A DNA stretch of 62,712 nucleotides, filler included, from Asterionella formosa (GCA_002256025.1; 8 parts of 8 records of this genome joined end to end with filler, not necessarily neighbours in it), one strand, 5' to 3'; shown: positions 7,771-56,610, numbered from the whole stretch's first letter. Numbers and translations: made by a program. Notes: generated by a model not told the origin, from the sequence alone.

Positions 7771-7870
7771 NNNNNNNNNNNNNNNNNNNNNNNNNNNNNN
7801 NNNNNNNNNNNNNNTTAATTAATTAANNNNNNNNNNNNNNNNNNNNNNNNNNNNNNNNNNNNNNNNNNNN
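7771..7870. other. Artificial contig linker N44-TTAATTAATTAA-N44 (also at 15641-15740, 23511-23610, 31375-31474, 39221-39320, 47066-47165, 54893-54992)
   Basis: Identical 100-nt spacer with stops in all six frames; the segments between linkers measure 7770, 7770, 7770, 7764, 7746, 7745, 7727 and 7720 nt. Confidence 0.97.
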
Positions 7871-8148
7871 AAAACAATTTTTTCTATTTCTCATTTGATG
7901 CTACTTATTACATCGAATTTCATACTTTGGTTGCTCCAAACATCATGTTCAATTTTCATTGATGTTGCATGTTACAATCATTCTCGTGTGTTTTACGCTT
8001 GTTGTACCATCTCCATGCATATTACCGTTATTTTGGTTGTCATGCTAAAATCGGCAATTTTATTGCCGAAAAATTCGATGTGCCCCATATTGCCCCTAAA
8101 TAAAAATTACTTAAGAAATTACTTAGAGACTAAAAATTACTTAGAAGT
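7871..8148. repeat. Dispersed repeat, copy 1 (probable transposon end); copy 2 at ~21031-21308
   Basis: Alignable over ~280 bp with 21031-21308. Both end in three AATTACT motifs and similarity stops sharply after CTTAGAAG. Confidence 0.8.
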
Positions 8149-8488
8149 ACCCGAATGGCAAGACGATAGCTGGAGCGGGAATTGCTCGAGGTGTCCTCAT
8201 CAGTCATGCAATGATTTTACACAAGATACATCCTTTATTCTACTACTGTATATGAGTTTATGTAAAGATGGTATCTAATTTATTCACTTTTTATACATAA
8301 ATTCAATTATCCCAAAAGCCCTTTCTTCATCACCATACCGGAATATTACTTAAAATGTGTGTATGATATAATGCATCCTAACACAAATACATATATACAC
8401 ATAGATGACGGACAAAATTTCCGGTATGACTGAATGAATTTTGGACCTTGCATGTAGAATTGAACGACATGAGATGGAAGCGAAACTA

Positions 8489-14702: not shown

Positions 14703-16975
14703 GCTGGTCTTGTTGTGAATGATATCAAAAAGACGACGAGCGACGAGAGAAAACAATTTATAATCCTTTACGAATATGTGTTCTACAGATCTAAACGGTG
14801 CCGAAAGACATAAAGTACGCACTCCCAATATGGCCTGCTTGATAAAAAAGAAAAGAAGATTGAACGTACCGGTAAAAATTTTTTAGACCAGCCATGACAA
14901 TAATTCACCGAGGGGGAGCATGTCAAGATCTTTTGTATTAGCAGGTACCGTACAACCTGTTTGCTCATTCATGTCTTGCTTGATTCTTCAATAGCAGGCA
15001 CGTGCAACAATGAACTACCGTAAAACCTGGTGTCTCGTACCCCTCAATGTACACAGCCACGACTGATTTTACATAGAGGGGAGTACGAGACATTGGACCT
15101 TTTTTGATAATCCAACACTGCGAGCAAACCGACTTCGCCACCGTTTTCTCCATAGTCTAAAACGTAAATAGCAACATTAAAAGATATATTGTTGTAGGTT
15201 CAAACAGTTTCTATCATCACTAGAATTTCTATTTTTGGGCACCGGTGCACCCGAGTTTTGTGATGGCATCAATAGTAATTCCTAGTGTGTGTACGCATTT
15301 GGACCTAATCCTACAACTGTACTAACTTGTGTAGACTCTACGACTTGGATAGTGATGGAAATTAATATAAGCCAACCACATCACTTATATGATTGGGCGC
15401 GCTCTGATAAAAAAATTTATTATATCATGTGTGTATTATAACACAAATTATTCTGGTGATCTGCTACATAATATCGTCCTTGCGCTCTGATAATAGAGAT
15501 ATTTTAGATTACTTCTCTGACATTATATATATTTTTAACTTTAATTTTCAACAGTTAAATTTTCATATCGATGCATCCTCTTGTATGCTATGCCGCCTCT
15601 TGTTCATTATATGCATGAGTTCTATATATTCATCATCGTCNNNNNNNNNNNNNNNNNNNNNNNNNNNNNNNNNNNNNNNNNNNNTTAATTAATTAANNNN
15701 NNNNNNNNNNNNNNNNNNNNNNNNNNNNNNNNNNNNNNNNTTCTTTCTGTTCTTGCTGATGGACTCGAACTGTCGACCTCTGGTTTTCATGTTCTTCCTC
15801 GTACCACTTGTACTAACGAGCCCGCTACCATGTTGAAATATATGGCGCTACTCTAGCGCGCTCCAGTACTGCCCTGGAATGACCGGTCAAGATCTTTCTC
15901 ACGCCGCTCGTCTGCAGATTCTTCTGCTATATAAATCCTGTCTATTTCCGTTTAGACATTCCTCAGACTACCTAGTCTTCGGACACCTGTCGACATCAAC
16001 AGCCTAACAGACACATTCTGACACCCCCCCCCTCCCCCCTTTGTGATAGCTATACATATGTTTCAAGGTTTAAGTCTATCGGGTTGGTTGCCAGAACGTG
16101 TGAGGTTATCTGGTTGCTTAGAGGCTAGTAACAGTCGTTGGATTGTAATGGGTTAAAACAACAATAACAGGGGATCTCATGCTGTGCAAACCAACCAAAT
16201 TTTACACGTTGGTACCTTCCGGGTTATGCAGAGTAGATTTCGAGCTGGAATAATAAATTGAAGTGCATTTTGATTGCGCACATGCAGTAGTGCTTACACC
16301 ATTTTAATAAATGGAAATCATGCTCATTCATGCTATATATAAATTTGCGCATGTTCCACACCTTCATTTGATTTTTTGTGATCATAAATTTGCCTTTACC
16401 ACCTTTGTCATCCTTGAAATAGTTGTGTTGAGCTCTGGAAATGCTGCAAATGCAATGAATGGGGTCTCGACTCTTGCTCCCTTGTAATCTGTACGCTTTA
16501 TGACATTCATCATCGAAAATATGGAAGGGACAAGAAACCTTGTTCAATGCTTTCTTGAAGCCTTCTTGAGGGTTTGTGCCTCTCAGACGAACCAGCAACG
16601 GGTGAGGGCCCATGAACAATTTTTCCTTCAGATCTTTCTTGTACTGTTGGATTCTTGGATGATTAATTCATGGTGGACTTGATTCCATTATTTGTTTGTC
16701 GAATGGGCCACTGCTTCCTCAGTGTTCAGGTTGGTTTGGGAGCTGTGAGTGGGTTCCCAGCACTGTTCTGGTAGCTGCTATATTGGCTTAAGAGCGAAGG
16801 TCAAAAGAATGGGGGTGTAATTTATATTTTTCAATTAAATTGCAAGAACCAGAACAATAAGAAAGATATGAACTCTTTGTCAGTAGCAGCAATCCTTCAC
16901 TTGTTTCACACTTTTGACAACCTAATCCAACATTAGCATCTCTATGAAGAGGCCATCAAGGTTCTTGAAATCTGC

Positions 16976-18700: not shown

Positions 18701-19084
18701 AACTTCTTCTTGTTCTCCATGGGTTTGAGGAACTTAGCAGGTCAATGTTCCTGTCTTTTCCAAGCATTTACATCAGCAGTTACTAGCGCAATAATGCGCG
18801 CATCAACTTTCGTGGTGGTTTGCCACCCAATGCCCTGCCTCAACAAGGGATTTTTATTTGTTAAGAGCTACCTATCATTGAAGTAATCTTGTTGCCTATT
18901 CATGTACTCTGTATAAAGACTTGGTCCTCAACTACCAAGTATGACATCAACATATTTGTCAGTACATTTTCAGCATCCATCGCATCACCTCTTGCTTGCA
19001 TGCCTTGGATTTCGAGTTTGACATAGTCGTTATAACTTTCAATTTTATACTCCAATCAAATAATATCATACATGTGTCGCATAC

Positions 19085-19390
19085 CACCACCTCGGATATG
19101 TCACTCCACATGCTTGGGTTTGGTGCGCCTTCGAAAGTCATGCATAACGCTAGGAGTGCCATGTCCTCAATGATTACTATCGCTTGTGATGCCGTGGTGT
19201 CTGATGTATGTAGAAGCCGGTATGCCGCTTTGAAATCTAATTTTGTCATTAGAATGCGTGTGCCTGGATCAGTTCTGCGTAGGTCCACTATGTAGTGGAT
19301 GAATCTCCGTAGCGCCGTACTGTACCCTCTCTTTTCTGGTATAGTTGCAACACACTCAGCAACTAATCTGGCTTGATCCATGCCCTTCAA
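19085..19390 (-). pseudogene. Reverse-transcriptase fragment of a DIRS/Ngaro-like (tyrosine-recombinase) retrotransposon
   Basis: RILMTKLDFKAAYR...LALCMTFEGAPNPSMWSDISE resembles RT motifs KxDxxxAYR and RLxFGxxxxPxxW; the YxDD segment is absent. Confidence 0.6.
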
Positions 19391-21030
19391 AGAAGCCCTC
19401 TGTAGAAGCTATATACATTTTCTACGTGCGACGATTCAGGTTACGGGTACATTGTGAGAAAGAACTCAAGGTATGTACTTTTCCTGTGTACTGCCTAATA
19501 CACCATACTGGTGATTCATTATGCACATGTACCAGTGATTTTTTGTGCATACTACTATGTAATAACTCATGTGCATCTTTTTCTAAATTGCTTCTCATAA
19601 ACTTGGCACTAAGAACCGACCACGCAAGCTAGGGCTAGCAAACAAGGCAGCAGAGCACAAGAAGGGACACTACTTTGGTAAAGGCTACTGTACTACTACT
19701 ACTACTACGAGGCTGTTGTAGACTTAGCTACAGATGCAGATATGGATATGGATAATGCTGGTCATTGCACTTCCCATGGGGAGAGGACAAAAAGTATGAT
19801 TTCTTCCCTCATCAACTACAGTGTTTCACTTCCTAAAAATCATTCTTGACAAATCCAGACATGGATCAGCTGAAATGAATTCCAGGTAACAGCTGTCATC
19901 AAAGGAAATGCAGCATCAAACACAGCTTGCAGTTTTCGAAGAGTTTGAAACCAACGAGCGAGTATCAGCTTCCAATTCCCGAAATATATTCTTCCAAACT
20001 TGCATTTGTTTCTCCTTCTGGTGATGTCAAACCAGTTGTTATTCCAATTCCTTCTGATCGCTCATCCTATCGTTGATTGTAATGCTGATTTGTCCTCTGC
20101 ACCTCCTCCTGATGCCCTGGCTCCAGTCCACTACTACTATTCCCATCTGCCACACCAAACTCCTGAACACATATACTACCATTCTGGTCTGCTGCCTCAT
20201 CCTGCACATCATCCAATCAACCATTCCGCCGTCCCCCTCCCTCCTCCCCAGCTCAACACTGGTCATAGTACTTTCATCCTCAGCCGATGCCACCACAAAA
20301 AATTTACACTCCAATGCTCCTCCTTGTCGTCCTCAAGGATATCATCTCATCATCACCATCCGCTGCCTCCTCCAGGGCGGCCAGTCAACCACCACCAGTC
20401 TACTACCACCAGCCAGCCGACGTCAACCCCCGCACCCACCTCCACCACAAAATCACCATCAACCAATGATACATTCAATTACCCCAGCTCCTCCTCCATT
20501 TTGAAAAGTTTATTTTTGTGTTGAGATGATGGAAAAACAGAGTGTAAGTTTTTGATGACGTTGACGTTGAAAATATTTTTTGTTGATCTTTTTCTCACCC
20601 AATCTATGTTCCTTGTTTCCTTTTCTCTTCATTTGCTGCCTTTCTACTACTACGAGTTCTACCTATCAATATTCAGCTAGACGGAATTGATTGGTGTGCT
20701 GGAAGATTTTGCTCGCTCAGAATGGAATGGAATAGAATGATCAGGGTTGTTTGGGGGTGGGAGGAATGCTGACTATGGGCAGAAGCACTCCTGGCTGCTT
20801 GTTGAGCTTGTGTCAGGCTACTACAGCTACTAGCTATGTGCATGGTTGTAGTAGCAACCAGATCATATATGCTACATAACAATGCAGATCTCAATTGGGT
20901 TCAGCTTTTTTCTTCCTTTCTACAATTTTTCGGTGATCAATTGTGTGATGGAAAGTCAATGTTGCCTGTGTAAGTGCTACAATGCATGTGTCTCCACTGA
21001 AACGCCTATTTTTTGCTTCAATTCTAACCC

Positions 21031-21308
21031 CAAAAAAACTTTTTCTATTTCTCATTTAACGCTACTTATTACATTGCGTGTCATACTTTGGTTGCTCCAA
21101 ACATCATGCTCAATTTTCATTGAAATTGTATGTTACAATCATTCTCGTGTGTTTCACGCTTGTTTGACCATGTCTAGTATATTACAATTATTCGGGCTGT
21201 CATCATGCTAAAATCGGCATTTTTAATTCCGAAAAATTCGATACGCCCATATTGCCCATAAAAAGAATTACTTAAGAAATTACTGAGAGCCAAAAAATTA
21301 CTTAGAAG
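21031..21308. repeat. Dispersed repeat, copy 2 (see 7871-8148)
   Basis: Same orientation and same sharp boundary as copy 1. Confidence 0.8.
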
Positions 21309-21342
21309 GTGGGGAATTTTAGGTTAAATCAACTGCCCCTGA

Positions 21343-21495
21343 GGGTCATTTTAGGTTGTTCCACACCTAAAATTCAGTAAATGATTGAGAATATTTTCTC
21401 GTCCTACAGACGAACCCCGGTACAAGGCTACAGACAACTTAAACTTCCTTTTCAGTTCTTGGAATTTTAGGTGCGGAAAAACCTAATAATGACTC
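21343..21495. repeat. Pair of ~33-bp imperfect inverted repeats, each an internal palindrome with an 8-bp spacer
   Basis: ATTTTAGGT-TGTTCCAC-ACCTAAAAT (21348-21373) and ATTTTAGGT-GCGGAAAA-ACCTAATAAT (21464-21490). Confidence 0.8.
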
Positions 21496-21705
21496 GCTGC
21501 TTTCGATACATTTGCGCAGAGTAAAATAGTTGATGGATCGCCTCCCGTAGGTGCTGAGAGTGTCATGAAGTCACCATGAGCCGCACTTTAGTAGGTGCTA
21601 TGATTCTGTATATATATAGAGTACTGATGATTCAATTTTTTGATTGAAATATAAGATCAGCAATTATCGTTACTCTTTCAAAGCTTTCAGATTGTTTTTT
21701 AAAGA

Positions 21706-23510
21706 ATGGACTCTACGCCCAACTTCGCTCCATGCTGCCTAGGCAATGCCTGTAAGATGATGCGCAAAGAAAGTGGCGAATTTCCTCATGCTGCAATCAG
21801 CCACCGATGTGTTTCCTGTGATGGAGCGATACATCCCCTTTGCGGAGAGACGAATTCAAATTCAAGCCTTTTGACTTGTCTCGGATGCTTCAAGCAATAT
21901 GGAAGATCATTTGAAGGCAAGGATGACTTCGAATATTTTCTGGGAGGAGGAGATTGGTTTGAGCAGCAAGTGGGATATGATACTGGCACTACAACAACAA
22001 CAATAAAACAAAGTGAGCATGATCGCTTGGTGGAAGAAACGAAGAAGAAGATGTTACCTGATGAATGTCCAAAGCTAAATAGAGCACAATCAACCGGAGA
22101 CAATAATCGGAATGAAGTTGTGAAACTAATAATGTGATTGTTACTTGGGCACAAGAATGAATCTGACAAGGAAACAAGGGATAGACAGATGAGTTTGATC
22201 AACCCAATATTATCTGGCCAGATTCATGTAGCAATCACAGACGACCAAGGAATTTCACAGAAGAAGAGGGAAGCTGCTGCAAGAGTTGTTATTAGGGAAT
22301 GGTTGGACAAGGAGAATAGTCCTGCACCCTTTGATTTTAGTGGTATGGTCTATAAGGACTACACAACATACTTGAGCTCGAATTTGAAGAATAATGGTGT
22401 GCCTTTGAAGGGAAAAGTTTATATGAACAAGCGATCAATCTTGAATAATCTGTTCAAGCGCCACAAGTTCAGGGCAAGTGACGATTTTCAGAGAATGTGG
22501 ACAAGTACATGGAAGGAGTTGTACGCGTTGTGTCAATGGCTGCACAGGAAGGCCTTGGTTCTGTGGAAATGGGCAAACGAGAAATTACTTTTGAGGTTTA
22601 CGAAAAATCGATGATATGGCTACTTGAGGAGAGGTCACACGAGGGTATTTTTGGTCGTGCTTTCATGTCATTGACTTGGAATTTGATGTGTAGGGGAGTA
22701 AATACCTGTGTGTGCTTGAAGCATCTTATGTGGAGGGCTGATGCATTTGGAATTTCATTTTCACATGTTAAGAATGACTCTGCAGGATCAAGGAACTGGC
22801 ATCCCCGCCATATTTACACAAACCCTGACAATTATCATGTGTACTGTGTGACTGCTGTTACAGAGTACCTGTTGTGCTTCCCACAGCTCTTCCAGGATGG
22901 GAATGGTATGCTATTCCCAGCAGGTCCCAAGCAAGAGGAACGATTTGGGGCTATCCTACTTCGTGTGCTAGAAAAGCACAAAGATGAGCTACTTGAACTT
23001 GGCTATGAACCTAATGACATAGGTGTACATTCCATTCGGAAAGGTGCAGGCACATATGCTTCTAGTGGTACAACTGCAGCTCCTTCAAGTGTTTCAGTCA
23101 ATAACCGGGGTGGGTGGACTTTGGGAGGTGTACGTGATGTTTATATGCTGTATGAGCGTGCTGGTGACCAGTATGTAGGTCGAATTTTGAGTGGTATGAA
23201 TGTAATATCTGCTAAGTTTGGCGCTTCTGCACCGGATTTCTTTTATCATGGTACTGTTGGTGTTCCCGAGGCAGTGGCTATTGTGAAAAAAAAACAGATG
23301 GATTTGAATCAAAAGGTTTCTACCATGTTGAAAGCATGTTTTGGAGAACTACAGGATTTAGTGTGCATCAGAAAGACACTACGGTTTGGAATAGCATCAA
23401 TGCTTCACCATTTTGATGCTGCAAATGAATTCCACACCAATTCACCACTTGCAATGTCGCCTATTTTCAGGAAACAAGAATTTATTGAATTGCGGGATTC
23501 TGTCAGAGTA
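21706..23510 (+). mobile_element. Crypton (CryptonS-like) tyrosine-recombinase DNA transposon ORF with an N-terminal Cys/His finger; one stop (22135-22137), one frameshift (~22495), truncated by the contig end
   Basis: YR catalytic residues in order: WNLMCR (R), VKND (K), GVHSIRKG (HxxR), RGGW (W), RDVY (Y), followed by RAGDQYVGR; no RT in frame. Confidence 0.85.
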
Positions 23511-23640
23511 NNNNNNNNNNNNNNNNNNNNNNNNNNNNNNNNNNNNNNNNNNNNTTAATTAATTAANNNNNNNNNNNNNNNNNNNNNNNNNNNNNNNNNN
23601 NNNNNNNNNNCAATACATATAATAAGTAAATATACATATT

Positions 23641-24181: not shown

Positions 24182-24794
24182 CAATATATGGAGTGGACCT
24201 ACACCCCTACTTTGTATGAAGACTGTATTTAAAAATGGAAAGGTTATGTATTGGTGAAAGCTCCGTTGAGCGTTATACATATTTATTTTGTATGTGAAAA
24301 GTATGTGTTTGATTATTCTGACTTTATATTATTTTTTCAACCCTACCTCGCTTTAGGGGTTCAAATGCAGGAACCTTAATACGGTACCTACCATAGATTT
24401 AAACATGATTACCGGATTACCAGTATGCCGGTATGTATAGATCGACGCGCCATAATAAAACATAGGTATCCAAATTGAGCGGCACCAACAAAATCCTGTA
24501 ATGAAAATCATTTGAGCGCACTTTTATCATGAAATGCAATTTCATCATCTAGTGAACTTTCCCTCTAAATACACGCATGGTACCAAACCGTAGACAAAGA
24601 AAGGCCAGTGCATCTGCAATTGCGTCGAGAGCTGACGACTGATCGACGGTTCCTCTCTTCATGGCCGAAGAATCCACGTCGGATGAATGAATGGATGGAT
24701 GAATAAATGAATGGATGACTGAATGGCAAGAATTTAACTGAACAATTTACATCATTGTAGCCTTTAAACAGAGCCCGCACTCATTCAAGTCACC

Positions 24795-26383
24795 ATGCCA
24801 AATCATCCGAACAGCGGCTACGGGAGCATCCCAACCGCCGAGCTTGACACAGAGCCAGAGCGAACGAGTCCTGAATCGAAGAAGCCGCCCTCCTTCGCCG
24901 CCGCTTTGGTGTCAGTCGTCCTCATCCTGGCCCTCGTGAGCGGCGGATTGTTCTACTTGCTGCCCACAGTGGACGTCCCAGAAGAGCTCGGGCCTCCTGA
25001 GAGTGAGATTCCCTTTTATTTCCAACAGCAGCTAGTTGATCACTTTGATACGCCGGGACTGTCGGGGGCAACCAATTCGTCCACATGGTCTCAGCGCTAT
25101 TATGTCAGCAGCCAATACTTTGCCGGCCCGGGGCATCCTATTTTTGTCATTATTGGTGGAGAAGGTGAACTGACCAGCATTTTGTACCCCTTCGTGTCGG
25201 AGCACTTGGCTAAACGCTTCGAGGCATACGTGCTTCAGCCAGAGCATCGCTTCTATGGAGCATCGCAGCCGCTAGGCTCTCAGAATCACAGCAATCATGA
25301 TCTTGTTGGATACCTCTCACCGGAACAAGCCATGGCAGATGTTATTCGGTTGGTCAAACACAAGCAAGAAGAATTACATTGCTCCCCCGATCGGTGGGCT
25401 GCCAGCTACTGTCCCGTCATTACTGTGGGAGGTTCGTATCCAGGATTCCTTTCGGCCATGCTACGACTTGTCTACCCGGACGTGGTGGACATTTCATACG
25501 CATCGTCAGCTCCATTGCACTTGTATGCCCAAGAGGTCAATGCGTCGGATTATTATGAATTCGTGACAGACGTGACTGAAGAAGCAGCGCCAGGATGTGC
25601 AGCTGCGACGAAAGCGGCACTTCTAGAGGTAGTCAACTACATCAACACAGACGACGCGCACTTTAAGGAAATGGCGGCGTTGATGGGAATATGTACCGAT
25701 ACTATTCCTGCCTACATTAAAACGAAGGATATGTTTCGTGAAGAGTTAATGATGGTGGTGAGCTCGTCCTATGCAGATTTCAATATGGGATACTATCCAC
25801 CCAAAGATGAGAAAACGCAGTTGATTATGGCATGTAAGGTGTTCCAAAACACCATGTCGACCATGTTTGAGAAAATGTCTGGAATTCTCGCCGTCATTGG
25901 AGGTGGTGACGACGACCAACAAACTGGGTCCGCAAAAACAAGTAATTGCTTTGATATGATGACCTTCATACCAGCTGGTCCTCGTGCCACAATTTCCTCG
26001 TCTGATTGGTCAGGAGCAGGTTCAGGGGATACTGCCAGAAGTTGGGAGTATCAGCTTTGCGCCGACTTGATTGTCCGAACAGGCTTTTCGGAAAAGAGTA
26101 TGTTCCCTCCTCGTGAGTGGACCTTGGAGTGGTTGACTGCACACTGCCATTATCGATTTGGCATTATTCCCCAGCCGTATCGACTTGTGAATTTGTGGGG
26201 CTTCAATGACTTGGTTAGCCATGGAGCATCACGCATTTTGTTTACGAATGGACTGCATGATGGTTGGTCCATATCGTCCATTACAACAAACTTATCTGAT
26301 ACGCTCGTGGCTATCAATTTCCCTAATGGTGCACACCATTCGGATCTTTCTCATGAAGGTCCAAATGAAAATGACACTGAGAC
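24795..26383 (+). CDS. Serine peptidase family S28 (prolylcarboxypeptidase/DPP7-like) with an N-terminal membrane anchor; 3' end falls in the gap
   Basis: QLVDHF, WSQRY, GGEG, EHRFYG, nucleophile GGSYPG, ASSAP, FTNGLHDGW, GAHHSDL. Confidence 0.92.
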
Positions 26384-27147
26384 NNNNNNNNNNNNNNNNN
26401 NNNNNNNNNNNNNNNNNNNNNNNNNNNNNNNNNNNNNNNNNNNNNNNNNNNNNNNNNNNNNNNNNNNNNNNNNNNNNNNNNNNNNNNNNNNNNNNNNNNN
26501 NNNNNNNNNNNNNNNNNNNNNNNNNNNNNNNNNNNNNNNNNNNNNNNNNNNNNNNNNNNNNNNNNNNNNNNNNNNNNNNNNNNNNNNNNNNNNNNNNNNN
26601 NNNNNNNNNNNNNNNNNNNNNNNNNNNNNNNNNNNNNNNNNNNNNNNNNNNNNNNNNNNNNNNNNNNNNNNNNNNNNNNNNNNNNNNNNNNNNNNNNNNN
26701 NNNNNNNNNNNNNNNNNNNNNNNNNNNNNNNNNNNNNNNNNNNNNNNNNNNNNNNNNNNNNNNNNNNNNNNNNNNNNNNNNNNNNNNNNNNNNNNNNNNN
26801 NNNNNNNNNNNNNNNNNNNNNNNNNNNNNNNNNNNNNNNNNNNNNNNNNNNNNNNNNNNNNNNNNNNNNNNNNNNNNNNNNNNNNNNNNNNNNNNNNNNN
26901 NNNNNNNNNNNNNNNNNNNNNNNNNNNNNNNNNNNNNNNNNNNNNNNNNNNNNNNNNNNNNNNNNNNNNNNNNNNNNNNNNNNNNNNNNNNNNNNNNNNN
27001 NNNNNNNNNNNNNNNNNNNNNNNNNNNNNNNNNNNNNNNNNNNNNNNNNNNNNNNNNNNNNNNNNNNNNNNNNNNNNNNNNNNNNNNNNNNNNNNNNNNN
27101 NNNNNNNNNNNNNNNNNNNNNNNNNNNNNNNNNNNNNNNNNNNNNNN
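26384..27147. other. Scaffold gap (764 N, no linker)
   Basis: Run of N without the TTAATTAATTAA spacer. Confidence 0.95.
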
Positions 27148-30100
27148 ACTACAACAACGCGACGAGCCACTGGTACTCCCATTTTGAATCCATTGCAACG
27201 ACAACGAGTGGCTCAATTTACATCTCAAGTACTTTCCATAAAACTGAATCCCATGGAACGATTCTTTGCATCCATCTTTCGATCGTCAGTTTTACAATTG
27301 TTAGACTCTCATCGATCCACAACAGCACGGACCAAGCTACTTCAACAAATGACTCATCGAGTGGGACTGACTCCTCCTTGTAAACTGGAACAACAGCAGC
27401 ATTACAAAGCACATGCAGCAGCATTGGCATCACTTGTTTTGGAAGAGGCACGATTTATTGTTGCCGAGGCCTTGTCAACACTTATGATGGTGGTGCAACC
27501 ATTGTCTGCAGCTGGGACTGTCACTACAATGAATCATGCCAAAAACAACAACAACAACAATACCAATACCAATAACAGCATTCAAGTCACATTGTCATCC
27601 ACCAAGGGAATAACTCCTCATGATGTTTTGTTTTTTCGAAAGGCCACTGATTTTACAATAATCGAATTACAATCCATACGACCAGGAACTGTATTTGTTA
27701 TTCAACGAGAGGCAAAGAAGAATTGTTACAATACTAATAGCATGCTATTAGGAACAATCGTGACAATGACGGAACAACGGTCCTTGGAGTTTGATTTGGA
27801 TATAACAATGAATACAGCCCTGAGATCCATATCCTTAATGATATACCAAGATCAAAAAGTTACCAGTGGAGACTATGTTATTACACCATTGACAACATTG
27901 CTTACCCAAGTACGACAGTTTGAAGCATGTACAATGGGTAATTACAGTGTACCATTCTTACCAGCATTGATGGGACAAAAGGGAGCAACACATACCAAAT
28001 TTGAACTATATGATGAATTCAAAGAAACACAGCAGGATAATGAAATGGAAAGTAAGGCCCAAGGCAATGATTTTTCAAGTTTTGATTCGGACGACGATGT
28101 CAAGATCAAACCAGAACCAAAATGTGATAGCAGTGCAAATGATGACGAAGATGACTCATCCATCAACAATTATGCATCATCGTCCACTCCAGTCTGCAAT
28201 ATTGGTGATGCCGTTGAAATCTTTTCTATACCAACTCTTGATGAGACTCAAGAAAAGGCATGTCTTGCGTTTTTGAATTCAAAGCCAGCATCCATTACAC
28301 TCGTACAAGGCCCGCCAGGAACAGGTTCGTATCGTCATGTATTGTGCTAAATGCAATGCTATGCTGTGCTGTGCTGTTGTGTGCCTGTCGAAGTGAAGTA
28401 TGCTTGTCAACGACTCACACTATATCGCATTGCAAATGGCTCTTGTCAGGAAAAACTACACTGCTTGTGTCAGTGATATGTCGGAACCTTTTACAATCAA
28501 AAGGAAAAAACAGACTCATGGTATGTGCTCCCACCAACAAGGCTGTGACTGTTTTGGCAACTAGATTTTTGATTGCGTCGAGAGGGACCCCGGAATTCAA
28601 TGCTGTCATGATTGGAGACAAGGAAAAATTATTGACAGAAGACCAAACATCCTCAGGCCTAAAGAGTATATTTGTCTACTCCTACATGGAAGTTATGGTG
28701 GACGAATGGACCAGCATCCGTCGCACATTGCAAAAACATTATATGGATGTGGGAGCCCTCATTACCACAGCCAATGGTCTGGTTGCCAAACTGGACCATC
28801 AGCTCCCAAACTTGATGTACAAAAATGATATTGCGACTATTACCAGTAACATTTTACAAAAGCTTGTGGAATTGTTTTCTTGTGGTCCGACAGTGCAGAT
28901 TGGAATGGCGATCAAAAGAGATCTCTGCGAAGCAATCAATACATTGATAAAGATGTTGAAAGGGATCAATGACAGAGACATAACTTCCGAATTGCTTTCA
29001 ACTGCCCATATTATCTTTTGTACCCTGGCAAGTGCTGGAGCTGTCATGGTGAAACAAACGGACCGAATACATGACTTGATTGTGGACGAAGCAGCAGCAG
29101 CTACTGAACCTGAATTATATATCCCATTTCATTTGAAGCCTCAGCGATTGTTGGCAGTAGGAGACCCGAAACAGTTACCAGCAACAGTCATGAGTCGATT
29201 TGCAGAAAAATGTGGCCTTAACAAGAGCTTACATGAACGACTCATGTACGATTGTCAATGGCCCTACATTATGCTTAATGTGCAGTACCGTATGCGGCCG
29301 CCCATTAGCGTCTTTCCTTCCACTACATTTTATCAAGGCGAGATTCAGAATGGCCCGAATGTGACAATGCCGAACTACATGACACCAATGTCACTTCTGA
29401 AGCAAGAAGCCTATAGATTTATACAAGTAAATGGCATTGAAAATCAAAATTGTATGGGGTCCTTTCAGAACCGTGATGAGGCGAAAGTTGTTGTGAACAT
29501 TTTACTGGAACTAAGTCATATGGCTCGAGTGCAAGGAAAAGGCCCAGCATGGAGTTTGGTCGATCGCATTCGCATCATTACGTTTTATCAAGCCCAAGTA
29601 ACCCTTATCAAAAGTATGCTTCGCGTTCATGGGTTGGAATCAGTTGTTGTTTCCACCGTTGATTCAAGTCAAGGGTGTGAAGCCGATGTCGTTATTGTTA
29701 CTTTTGTCCGCAGCGTTGCCAATGGTAAGATTGGCTTCTTGGCAGACAATCGTCGATTGAATGTCGCATTAACACGTGCCAAGTTTCAATTGATTTGTGT
29801 GGGCAATGTCAAGGGTATGATGGATCTGGATGAGGCCAAAACAATCCAATCTCTTGCCAACAATGCACATTCCCGGGGGTGTATATCGTCGTATTCAACA
29901 GTCCAACATTATGGGGAGAAGGCGAAGAAGAAGAAGAAGAGTATTACAAATACGAAGAATACTAGTCAGCCACAGTCACGTCAAGCCAATCATCATGGCC
30001 CTCCCAGCCATAATTGGAACCGTATGCAGAATGCCAGTGGTAGTGGTGGTCGTGGTGGTGGTGGTGGCCGCGGTGGTAGTGGTGGTCGTGGTGGTATCAA

Positions 30101-31361: not shown

Positions 31362-31541
31362 TTTAGTGTTTTTTNNNNNNNNNNNNNNNNNNNNNNNNNN
31401 NNNNNNNNNNNNNNNNNNTTAATTAATTAANNNNNNNNNNNNNNNNNNNNNNNNNNNNNNNNNNNNNNNNNNNNCCAAGTAGACTGAGTGAACCATTCCT
31501 CTGCTTCGATATCGTCGTCCAGACACTAACTAGTCATATGT

Positions 31542-39199: not shown

Positions 39200-39537
39200 A
39201 TTTGTCTGAGTTCCAGTGGGNNNNNNNNNNNNNNNNNNNNNNNNNNNNNNNNNNNNNNNNNNNNTTAATTAATTAANNNNNNNNNNNNNNNNNNNNNNNN
39301 NNNNNNNNNNNNNNNNNNNNAACTAATCCCAATTCAAGGCGACAGTAAAGGAACTCCTACGTAGCTAATAAACATACGTGCACAAAGAAAGCTCCAATAA
39401 AATGCAGAAGGTATTTGGTCCTTTCCACTTGCAACTCCCAATTCCCAAACTTCAGGTAACGAAATGTGATGATGCTTCCTGGTGGCTATCGTGGAACCTG
39501 CTGTGATATTAGAAGTGACAGGTGTGAGTGATGGAAA

Positions 39538-46876: not shown

Positions 46877-47574
46877 GGTAGCCCAGCTTTTTTGTAATGT
46901 TCAGGCGCCGCGGAGCGATCGAATATAATGATGGAAGTGTATGTAAATGCTGTCACTTCCACGCGGCATTGGATAAACTGAGACGAGCCACCCGAATTTC
47001 GTAATCAGATCCTCATTCTTGATGGAGGAGGATCCATACCAACAAGCAAGTTGAGATAATGAGAANNNNNNNNNNNNNNNNNNNNNNNNNNNNNNNNNNN
47101 NNNNNNNNNTTAATTAATTAANNNNNNNNNNNNNNNNNNNNNNNNNNNNNNNNNNNNNNNNNNNNTGGTACCGGTACCTGGTACCTTGTCGTCCTCCCTG
47201 TTTTCATCATCCGGTATCTTTATACCGTACCGGTACCAGTTGGTAGTTGCAACCAAACTTTAAGATAGGTCACAACTGCCTCTCAGCTATCCATCTCAAT
47301 CGATTGATCGATCTATCCATCCATCCATCCATCCATGGGTCAACAGATACTTCAATCAGTATTGTATTGAATGGTGGATTGAGACAAAGACGAAGAAGGT
47401 CCATTGATCTTTCTTGTTCATCAAACTGACCGCATTTTGCTCTTTTTCCATGAAAACATTCTTACAAAAAATCAACTACGAAGAATAAACTCGTGTGAAG
47501 TTTTGAATTCCTTGTTGGTCGTCGTCCTTTGTCAAAACGTAATTATCATCCGATACCAAAAGAAATATACCATC

Positions 47575-54474: not shown

Positions 54475-56610
54475 TGGAGGATATCGCTCTTGCTAATTGC
54501 AAACAAGCAACGAAAGGTTCACAGTCAACATCACCAAGAGGTTGTGGAAGTCATTTTTCTATTTGATTTTTCACTTGTCGTCTGACTTTCCTCGTGTCGT
54601 GGTATGTACCAGGTACCAGTACTGACTGGTACTGCAGCTATGATGTAATGTGTACTAACATACAGGTAAGTCAATACCCAGTAGTTCATAACAATAGGTT
54701 ATACATACCTGAATATATTATTTTTAATTTCAAGTTTGCTAGCTACGACAATGTCAGCGTATATTATGGATGACAATTTGGTATTGGTACCTGGTACCAA
54801 AATAGGTACTTGGACGTTGAATACCGCTATATGCGCACATGCCATACTCTCAAGAGGATGTACCGGTATGATTCATACTTTTGAATAATTTTNNNNNNNN
54901 NNNNNNNNNNNNNNNNNNNNNNNNNNNNNNNNNNNNTTAATTAATTAANNNNNNNNNNNNNNNNNNNNNNNNNNNNNNNNNNNNNNNNNNNNCACATGCC
55001 GGCATCAATACAGCTATAACAAGGAAAAACGACACGATAATGAACGTGATGGCTGGTTGTTGAGGATACCGGTATGTGATATGCATCAATCCATATCACA
55101 AATCATATTATAGTGATGTTCATATCAACGCATCTGTATACTTAGATCCTATCCACCGTATAATCATACTATCATTTTAACTGTTGGTTTTTACTATATA
55201 CATTAAAAGTCGAATATATGTAGATAAGGTAACATACTTAATGATTTATTTATTTATTTTCTTTGATGTATTGATAACACTTGCGTACATATTTTATCTT
55301 ATTTTATTATCATTGTATTATTTTAACATGATCATTTTTTGAACAAAAATATATATCATAAACATTTTAAGAAATCATCACAGTTCTATGATCAATGCAT
55401 CATAGCTATGTGATATACTTTATACAATATTAGGTATCATACTTAGGTGATGTATGCATCGATGTAACCCTATCGTGATATCACATTATCCTCTTATCAA
55501 TCATTCAATGTTGATTTGGAACTTTATTCTGGCTCGTACTACAGAGTATGATATTATAACACGCACTTTAGTACCTAAGTCACTCCTGTAATGTACACAA
55601 CAGACGTACACACACGCTAATTAGGTTTAAGGCAACAGACAGTTGTTCCAACGAGCAAATGACAATATCACGGGTACCAATTGTTCCAGCGGCAGACCGC
55701 AATGATGAAGGACACTTGTGTCTCTATTGATGAGGATGACACAAACACCGACTTTTCCAGGAGCAAACAACAATGAAGAGACCCACTTGTCCCTCTATTG
55801 ATGGTAACAAAGATGCGGACAAGTTCAACATTGAATACAAGAACAACATACCAACGAAAACGAGTCGGCAGTGTGTGTACGCACACGCCAAGGAGGTTTG
55901 AGGCAACGGACAGTTCCAACAAGCAAATGATGATACGGATATTAAATATTTCCTACGAGCAAACAACAACGAAGAGAGCCACTTGCTTTCGCTCTCTTGA
56001 TGGTATCAACGATGTGGACAAGTTCAATAGTAAATACAACTACAGCATGCCAAATGCAGAAACGAGCGATATGAAAAAGAAATTGTCATCAGAATCATTC
56101 TATAACTATAGCTACGTGGACAGTAGTCTGTTACATTTTCGTATCTCCTTTTATGCTGAATCTCAATAGTAGATGTAGTATCATGTGAGAATTGAAGATG
56201 TCAATGAGAAAAAGTAGAATGTGTTTGTTTACAGGTTGATTCTTTGCGAGATTGTAATGCTGGTGGTCGACGAAACGGATTTACTATGTGCTCTGTGTGC
56301 GGAACCATTACAAGTTCGAATGATTTCTTCTCTGTAAACTCTTAATTGAATGATTATGAACAAAGGTTCACTGCACATGACAATTACTCAAAGATGTAAT
56401 GATCACTTGACCAACAATTGAACACGTTATCGCAAAAAATCATTCCACTTGTCATCGCTTGTATTTCGTTGTTGTTGCAAAAATCGGAGTGATGATGGGT
56501 GGAAATGACGAGCCAAATTACATCACTTTAGCTGGTACATTATCCTACCACGAAAATCAAATACAGGAATCTAATAGAAACAATAGATATAAAAATTAAA
56601 TATATGTAGT

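Follow-up and report, generated by a model that had tools for sequence, protein, structure and literature searches.

Based on the analyses reported here, we suggest that a cluster of palindromic motifs upstream of a Crypton-type tyrosine recombinase (YR) gene in the freshwater diatom Asterionella formosa (GCA_002256025.1) may belong to the 5'-terminal cis region of a Crypton lineage. The stretch of DNA analysed, here called the window, is 62,712 nucleotides (nt) long and consists of eight contigs placed end to end, not of one stretch of a chromosome; the motifs and the recombinase open reading frame (ORF) sit in its third contig (15741-23510). In the reading that we put first, while giving it somewhat less than an even chance, positions 21309-21497 form this terminal region, the region is shared with many short copies of the element, and the motifs in it are binding sites of the recombinase. 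The palindromic repeat itself is real but far commoner than the gene, and action of the recombinase on it remains a candidate function, proposed from the nucleotide sequence.

In the first 190 bases after position 21308, one motif of 9-11 bases is present in five copies. The form ATTTTAGGT occurs four times in the 62.7-kb window, and all four occurrences lie inside 21316-21472 (157 nt), compared with a mean of 0.69 occurrences per whole window in shuffled sequences, of which 2 of 100 have four or more anywhere. A half-site, GAATTTTAGGT at 21314-21324, falls within the first 37 nt past the break in the flanking repeat X described below (21309-21345, + strand; delimited by sequence, repeats and run depth). 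It is followed by site 1, the left foldback arm (21346-21375, + strand; sequence and palindrome search), in which a perfect 9-8-9 palindrome with TC/TC flanks reads ATTTTAGGT-TGTTCCAC-ACCTAAAAT at 21348-21373. Site 2 (21462-21493, - strand; sequence and repeat search) is an inverted copy of site 1, spacer included, and reads ATTTTAGGT-GCGGAAAA-ACCTAATAAT at 21464-21490 in the form 9-8-10, its right (outer) arm being imperfect with one base extra. The sites are separated by 90 nt, their spacers match at 6 of 8 positions when one is reverse-complemented, and they lie 216-358 nt upstream of the ATG at 21706. The sequence-only reading that preceded this work had given these coordinates, letters, spacer match and opposite orientation, all of which agree with the DNA. 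It had also called the sites lox-like, and the geometry of lox, FRT and dif sites, with inverted arms around an asymmetric 6-8-bp spacer, is indeed that of site 1 (9-8-9) and site 2 (9-8-10).

Because site 2 copies site 1, only one of the palindromes is independent; it is present a second time in inverse, and the half-site adds a third arm outside the foldback. Sites 1 and 2 amount to a sequence of about 31 nt present twice in inverse (32 nt at 90.6%; 25 nt at 92% with 86 nt between), and with the 86-nt loop between the arms (21376-21461, + strand; repeat search, folding and run depth) they form a foldback of 150 nt, which we refer to as the unit. The folding energy of 21305-21500 as single-stranded DNA, with the arms paired, is -28.4 kcal/mol (z -3.25), a value reached by none of 200 shuffles. 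A single perfect palindrome is unremarkable: the window has three perfect 9-N(6-10)-9 palindromes compared with 1.87 +/- 1.67 in 100 Markov simulations. The non-random part is the inverse duplication together with the third arm. The site pattern has 12 matches in IMG/VR, none with other similarity or a YR, and these are chance palindromes. Around 21345-21493 there is no target-site duplication, and the flanks differ. Between the unit and the gene lies a Crypton-specific 5' leader (21494-21705, + strand), delimited by run depth and alignment to a sibling copy, with a TATA-like run at 21609-21618 that, by its sequence, may act as a promoter element.

A second copy of this arrangement is present in an independent assembly. 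A metagenome scan for relatives confirmed 4 of 429 pattern matches (L001-L004), all with 95-98% DNA identity to the window element. Of these, L003, which is 97.7% identical and starts at the equivalent of 21346, is the only one that reaches the upstream region, where unit, leader and ORF follow one another as in the window; neither the metagenome scan nor the viral and prokaryote collections yielded a distant sibling with upstream DNA. The paired sites are kept in L003 at the same position relative to the gene, which is what the sequence-only reading had proposed looking for in siblings. All four arms are intact, and site 2 and nearly the whole loop are identical to the window. Two changes fall in the spacer of site 1 (2 of 8 positions) and one lies five bases after site 1, so that the spacers of sites 1 and 2 in L003 match at 7 of 8 positions. 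Overall, L003 differs from the window at 3 of 150 nt in the unit, 9 of 210 nt in the leader, which also has one 2-nt gap, and 14 of 961 nt in the ORF.

The ORF (21706-23510, + strand) is a pseudogene of a Crypton-type tyrosine recombinase and accounts for the N-terminal 600 or so of about 876 residues; it stops at 23510 because the contig ends there. As the sequence-only reading had noted, this copy is broken: a TGA stands in place of a Trp codon at 22135-22137 and one nt is deleted after 22484. Both lesions are private to the window copy. In four sequencing runs, most or all contigs have TGG at 22135-22137 and many have the extra base after 22484; the possibility that TGA is read as Trp was rejected on the grounds that most copies have TGG there. 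Lesions differ between the other copies: a 1-nt deletion distinct from that of the window is common to L003 and L004, two insertions are present in L002, and L001 has no lesion at these positions. Beyond the equivalent of 23510, L001 and L002 continue for no more than about 350 nt. The copies are dispersed, multiple and independently decayed. Two further differences in length are private to the window copy of the ORF: at 22918 the window is 3 bases longer (one extra Ala) than contigs in all four runs, and at 23286 most contigs in three runs are one A shorter in the A-run 23282-23294.

That the ORF encodes a Crypton-type tyrosine recombinase, also part of the sequence-only reading, is supported by its fold, its catalytic residues, its decaying multi-copy family and the lack of a reverse transcriptase domain. 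The homologue family comprises 2905 cluster representatives at E values up to 0.001; full-length relatives have about 850-900 residues, with named members only in the diatom Fragilaria crotonensis, where they are hypothetical proteins. In a 47-sequence alignment, R71, K97, H183, R186 and Y221 (numbered on the window fragment 22482-23510) are invariant and W212 is present in at least 90% of sequences; together, these residues make up the R-K-H-R-W-Y catalytic set of tyrosine recombinases. The distance from W to Y, 9, equals that in Cre. A structural model built for this fragment, with a predicted local distance difference test (pLDDT) score of 89.2, is most similar in a fold comparison to Flp (Z 14.9, 235 residues aligned) and Cre (Z 14.8), followed by Xer proteins (Z 13-14) and Ndc10 (Z 13.0). 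Z is at least 8 for 81 of 192 chains, the top matches are all recombinases or topoisomerases, and 6emy and 1z1b are among the matches. The model of a full-length homologue aligns with Cre over about 330-380 columns, covering nearly all of Cre (E 8.6e-4). The Ndc10 (Cbf2) gene has been traced to CryptonF by Kojima and Jurka (PMC3212892).

Pfam has no family for the catalytic part of the window ORF or for the 876-aa homologue P0001, and a sequence-profile search against the PDB gave no recombinase match, so that the assignment depended on the fold comparison. Among protein-language-model neighbours, Phage_integrase or NDC10_II is found in a minority or a majority of members. P0001 has no reverse transcriptase, RNase H or methyltransferase domain, and its model consists of the YR domains and a small C-terminal domain. 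This C-terminal domain (residues 707-840) has a pLDDT of about 90 and a conserved GKFRRVP...FPK motif, and has no Pfam match. The N-terminal Cys/His region gives a low-confidence model and has only a weak Znf_SCAND3 match. The 40-residue N-terminal extension of a further homologue, P0003, has no likeness to the translation upstream of the window ORF.

On its left side, the motif cluster adjoins repeat X, a high-copy, non-coding repeat of which 20826-21308 (no strand assigned) is a truncated copy whose tail is 39 nt shorter than that of canonical X. Between 21032-21308 and 7871-8147, the start of the second contig, identity is 86%; past 21308 and 8147 the two sequences are quite different. For abundance, we used Logan contigs of four runs (named X1, X2, X12 and X13, of which X12 is an RNA run) aligned to 20000-23510 at a likeness of at least 90%; depths are contig means summed over all contigs and are not copy numbers. 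In run X1, the summed word depth of repeat X is 1e5 to 1.3e6 compared with about 580 for the unique flank 20000-20353. In runs X2, X12 and X13, contigs track the window to 21307/21308 and then resemble 8148 onward (loose ends). In L004, the X tail continues for another 39 nt and then meets a Crypton ORF in its middle part, which marks the canonical end of X; there, X (400-1095) is inserted in reverse in the ORF, at the equivalent of 22778. Canonical X is thus a mobile repeat with an end of its own, and the window copy is broken after 21308, five bases ahead of the half-site.

Further properties of X and of this junction were recorded. An 11-13-nt motif (AATTACTTAGAA-like) is present in X (20826-21308 and 7871-8186) as three direct copies, immediately before the 39-nt tail. 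In the stretch upstream of X, which is rich in repeats, several X1 and X2 contigs skip 107-133 nt at 20738-20885, so either the window copy has a short extra segment there or other copies have a deletion. A scan of 20000-21720 with Rfam and a tRNA search found nothing, and there is therefore no sign that X is tRNA-derived. The possibility that 21309-21345 is a diverged X tail was rejected, its alignment likeness being at chance level only. A 49-aa spurious ORF that spans the junction between X and the unit, used as a query for junction types, gave no candidates. Queries with 26-28 nt taken from the unit, with 27 nt from the core of X and with the protein alignment had no match in the viral and prokaryote collections.

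The arms of the unit are far more abundant than the ORF. In run X1, summed depth is 448k at 21358 and 399k at 21378 in the arms, 8.4-36k in the loop (21412-21438) and 6.5-27k in ORF bins. The corresponding values for arms, loop and ORF bins are 385 and 373, 101-143 and 15-50 in run X2, 76 and 99, 47 and 20-43 in run X12, and 27 and 41, 17-25 and 0-11 in run X13. In X1, 55 and 57 contigs show the commoner letter at arm positions 21358 and 21378, compared with 10-16 contigs that cover positions in the ORF. Summed depth is thus about 3-30 times as high in the arms as in the ORF; the arms are the commoner in all four runs, extremely so in X1, where they also have about 50 times the depth of the loop. 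In X1, loop values of 8.4-11k are close to those of the ORF, and in X2, X12 and X13 the loop is at about 2-6 times ORF level; the leader is at ORF level from 21534 on. From the X1 bin sums, simple arithmetic implies that at least about 24 of the 37 nt in 21309-21345 have arm-level depth. Because arm-level depth in X1 runs from about 21309-21321 onward, the repeat family would begin approximately where X breaks. At 21358 almost every copy in the runs has A, and at 21378 G; L003 agrees with them, and the window deviates at both positions. One contig of the RNA run departs from the window sequence after 21526, and the X12 contig that covers the loop ends inside both arms.

Because arm depth and contig number exceed those of the ORF in four runs, arms or units are probably widespread without an ORF of at least 90% likeness alongside. 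The sequence-only reading had regarded a unit that is common and unlinked to Crypton ORFs as evidence against its proposal, and the excess of arms bears this out in part. The surplus arms fit either an independent repeat resembling a miniature inverted-repeat transposable element (MITE) or non-autonomous derivatives of the Crypton.

In the model that we tentatively prefer, the Crypton would have its end at 21308/21309, within one of the many copies of repeat X. The motifs would most likely be bound by a two-domain, Cre-like clamp, which an arm of 9-11 bp fits. Because the crossover of transposition must be at the element end, the terminal half-site is taken as the candidate core site, which would position cleavage there. 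By contrast, sites 1 and 2 cannot be the transposition crossover, because they lie 40-180 bp inside the presumed end; each of these internal palindromes would bind a dimer in an accessory role, and may aid pairing of the ends or regulate the nearby promoter in the manner of arm-type or subterminal sites. The terminal block would be common to many short or more diverged copies, and for this reason far commoner than the ORF. Short repeated motifs at transposon ends are usually the binding sites of the mobilising enzyme, and a transposon accompanied by non-autonomous offspring is the textbook pattern of DNA transposons. For Cryptons, non-autonomous elements that share 5' and 3' ends are known, and the absence of a target-site duplication is expected (PMC3212892).

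Besides the motif cluster with its inverted copy, the arm-level depth from where X breaks, the identity of the protein as a YR and the lack of a target-site duplication, three observations support this model. First, X stops at 21308 in the window while canonical X continues with another 39-nt tail. Second, L003, which carries a frameshift of its own, keeps the order of unit, leader and ORF. Third, depth in X1 is at ORF level in both loop and leader, which would be expected were the unit carried by most ORF copies. Several other observations count against it. The excess of arms of about 3-30 times is explained equally well by an unrelated MITE or a subfamily of X, and depths summed over contigs are not copy numbers. 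In X1, depth is similar from X into the unit, so X and the unit could be one repeat; canonical X, in turn, lacks the unit and yet is mobile, as in L004. The conservation of the unit relative to L003 is not significant, the differences being too few to show constraint. TATGG, the terminal repeat of most stramenopile Cryptons (see below), is absent at or beside the 21308/21309 boundary. The arms are just 9-11 nt long. Finally, the window and all loci stop short of the 3' end of the element, where a matching motif would lie.

These data fit nearly equally well with a second explanation, which we regard as a close rival and only slightly less probable. According to it, the unit has its origin outside the Crypton, either in a high-copy repeat of foldback or MITE-like type or in an X subfamily with an alternative 3' tail; it was nested in, or situated beside, the founder of this Crypton lineage and has since travelled with it. 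The arms would then be inverted ends or binding motifs for a different mobilising enzyme, with no connection to the Crypton recombinase. With 32-nt inverted arms at 90.6%, an 86-nt loop and a total of about 150 nt, the unit has the build of such a repeat; arm depth far above ORF depth in four runs, and about 50 times loop depth in X1, is what such a repeat would give, as is an X1 depth that is alike on both sides of 21308. The neighbourhood consists of nested repeats, X itself being inserted in a Crypton ORF and canonical X moving without the unit, and the RNA-run contig that diverges after 21526 indicates at least one copy of the unit without the Crypton leader. However, 21345-21493 is not flanked by a target-site duplication, the 11-mer has a third copy beyond the foldback, arm-like sequence is absent from the X copies in the window, the unit is linked to the ORF in both copies that reach the region, and loop depth tracks the ORF in X1. 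In addition, this explanation requires two nested events or an X subfamily so far unobserved.

As a third alternative, the repeats could serve the Crypton gene from upstream in a regulatory or structural capacity, for example as binding sites of transcription factors or as a hairpin for small-RNA silencing, with no role in recombination. Their position is suitable (115-260 nt before the TATA-like run and 216-358 nt before the ATG), the foldback is strong and contigs of the RNA run cover the loop. Nevertheless, we consider this unlikely: it leaves the excess of arm copies and the boundary at 21309 unexplained, and evidence for transcription from run X12 was rejected, X being over-represented relative to the ORF in this RNA run as in the DNA runs, with carry-over of DNA possible.

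The fourth alternative, a switch in which the recombinase flips the 90-nt segment between the inverted sites, is very improbable: the full sites are inverted, their asymmetric spacers are nearly identical (7 of 8 in L003) and a YR gene adjoins them, but both assemblies that extend into the unit show it in one orientation, the spacers are not fully alike, high-copy arms argue for a repeat family over a local switch, and none of the 15 joints listed out of 26 in the four runs changes strand (11 others and 313 loose ends lie outside this set), which is weak evidence as contigs drop rare forms. Accordingly, the proposals of the sequence-only reading that the sites give rise to inversion or circles found no support, neither strand-changing nor end-joining joints being among these 15, and its proposal that a promoter-proximal segment is flipped does not fit with the TATA-like run at 21609-21618 lying outside the segment that could be inverted.

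Returning to the Crypton end proposed here, a more far-reaching version is possible but rather doubtful, namely that this is a Crypton family whose recombinase has defined, lox-shaped binding sites at the 5' end, consisting of a terminal half-site and two inverted 9-8-9 palindromes, and which has given rise to hundreds of MITE-like non-autonomous copies that keep only the terminal block. A still bolder variant would have the element integrate site-specifically into such a palindrome borne by an abundant repeat.

The window element shares several features with known Cryptons. Cryptons have been described as having no inverted repeats, with either direct repeats of 4-6 bp or variable, poorly conserved terminal repeats (PMC3212892, PMC13465315). 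As in CryptonS elements of stramenopiles, the window element has a single long YR ORF with a conserved C-terminal region and no reverse transcriptase, is found in a stramenopile host, and has low-to-middling copy number, decaying copies and no target-site duplication (PMC3212892). CryptonS elements, by contrast, have terminal direct repeats of 5-6 bp, mostly TATGG, and no inverted repeats (PMC3212892), whereas at 21308/21309 there is no TATGG and the motifs form a palindromic cluster; the comparison is with the description of CryptonS alone. The absence of TATGG is not decisive, as only the majority of CryptonS elements have it.

Compared with Cre/loxP, Flp/FRT and XerCD/dif, the sites have the same arrangement of inverted arms around an asymmetric 8-bp spacer, and the window recombinase shares with Cre the two-domain fold and an R-K-H-R-W-Y set with Cre-like spacing. 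However, the arms are 9-11 bp long compared with 11-13 bp in lox, FRT and dif (PMC3212892), and no recombination product was seen among the contigs. The Starship or "Captain" YR elements likewise have a YR gene near the 5' end that reads inward, and some have terminal inverted repeats, but they are giant fungal cargo elements with a DUF3435-type YR (PMC13465315); for the window element, neither cargo nor a match to that family was found.

Two further comparisons concern the arrangement of the motifs. In prokaryotes, the YR systems of lambda Int and of Tn916/Tn1549 Int have arm-type and terminal sites. The window element resembles these in having short motif copies in both orientations, within about 200 bp of the end and beside the recombinase gene; it differs in being eukaryotic and in having at most a putative arm-binding domain, in its N-terminal Cys/His region. 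MITEs and foldback repeats, for their part, share with the unit a length of about 150 nt, inverted arms of about 31 nt, a strong hairpin and arms that are commoner than the coding partner. The unit differs from them in that it has no target-site duplication, each arm is itself palindromic, it is linked to the ORF in both copies and an extra half-site lies outside the foldback.

The remaining features of the window concern its assembly and neighbouring reading frames. The same artificial linker, N44-TTAATTAATTAA-N44, recurs seven times at about every 7.8 kb (7771-7870, 15641-15740, 23511-23610, 31375-31474, 39221-39320, 47066-47165 and 54893-54992; no strand assigned) and is not biology; because the window consists of joined contigs, features that touch a linker are cut by assembly and not by any biological event. 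The eight joined contigs have near-equal, slowly shrinking sizes, from about 7.77 to 7.72 kb. On the contig that follows the recombinase ORF, a long open frame at 24768-27383 is interrupted by 764 N. At 18959-19408, on the - strand and thus opposite to the Crypton, an ORF fragment resembles a reverse transcriptase by eye; Pfam gives nothing for it at E up to 0.1, and it is possibly a decayed retroelement.

To our knowledge, no class of eukaryotic DNA transposons is less well understood than Cryptons, whose ends are hard to define. The model in which they are excised as circles is based on analogy. In the literature searched, including the available text of PMC3212892 and PMC13465315, we found no description of recombinase-binding sites for Cryptons. 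If the block is a nested MITE, it represents ordinary repeat nesting and would serve as a caution that, in repeat-rich genomes, palindromes beside recombinase genes are not evidence of function. If, on the other hand, the motifs are a cognate site set, they would provide a concrete 26-bp substrate together with a matching family of apparently intact genes for biochemistry. Cis-acting sites would thereby be described for a Crypton for the first time, as part of a compact eukaryotic pair of recombinase and site that is open to bench experiments. Crypton activity would also explain a high-copy short repeat in the genome of a freshwater diatom.

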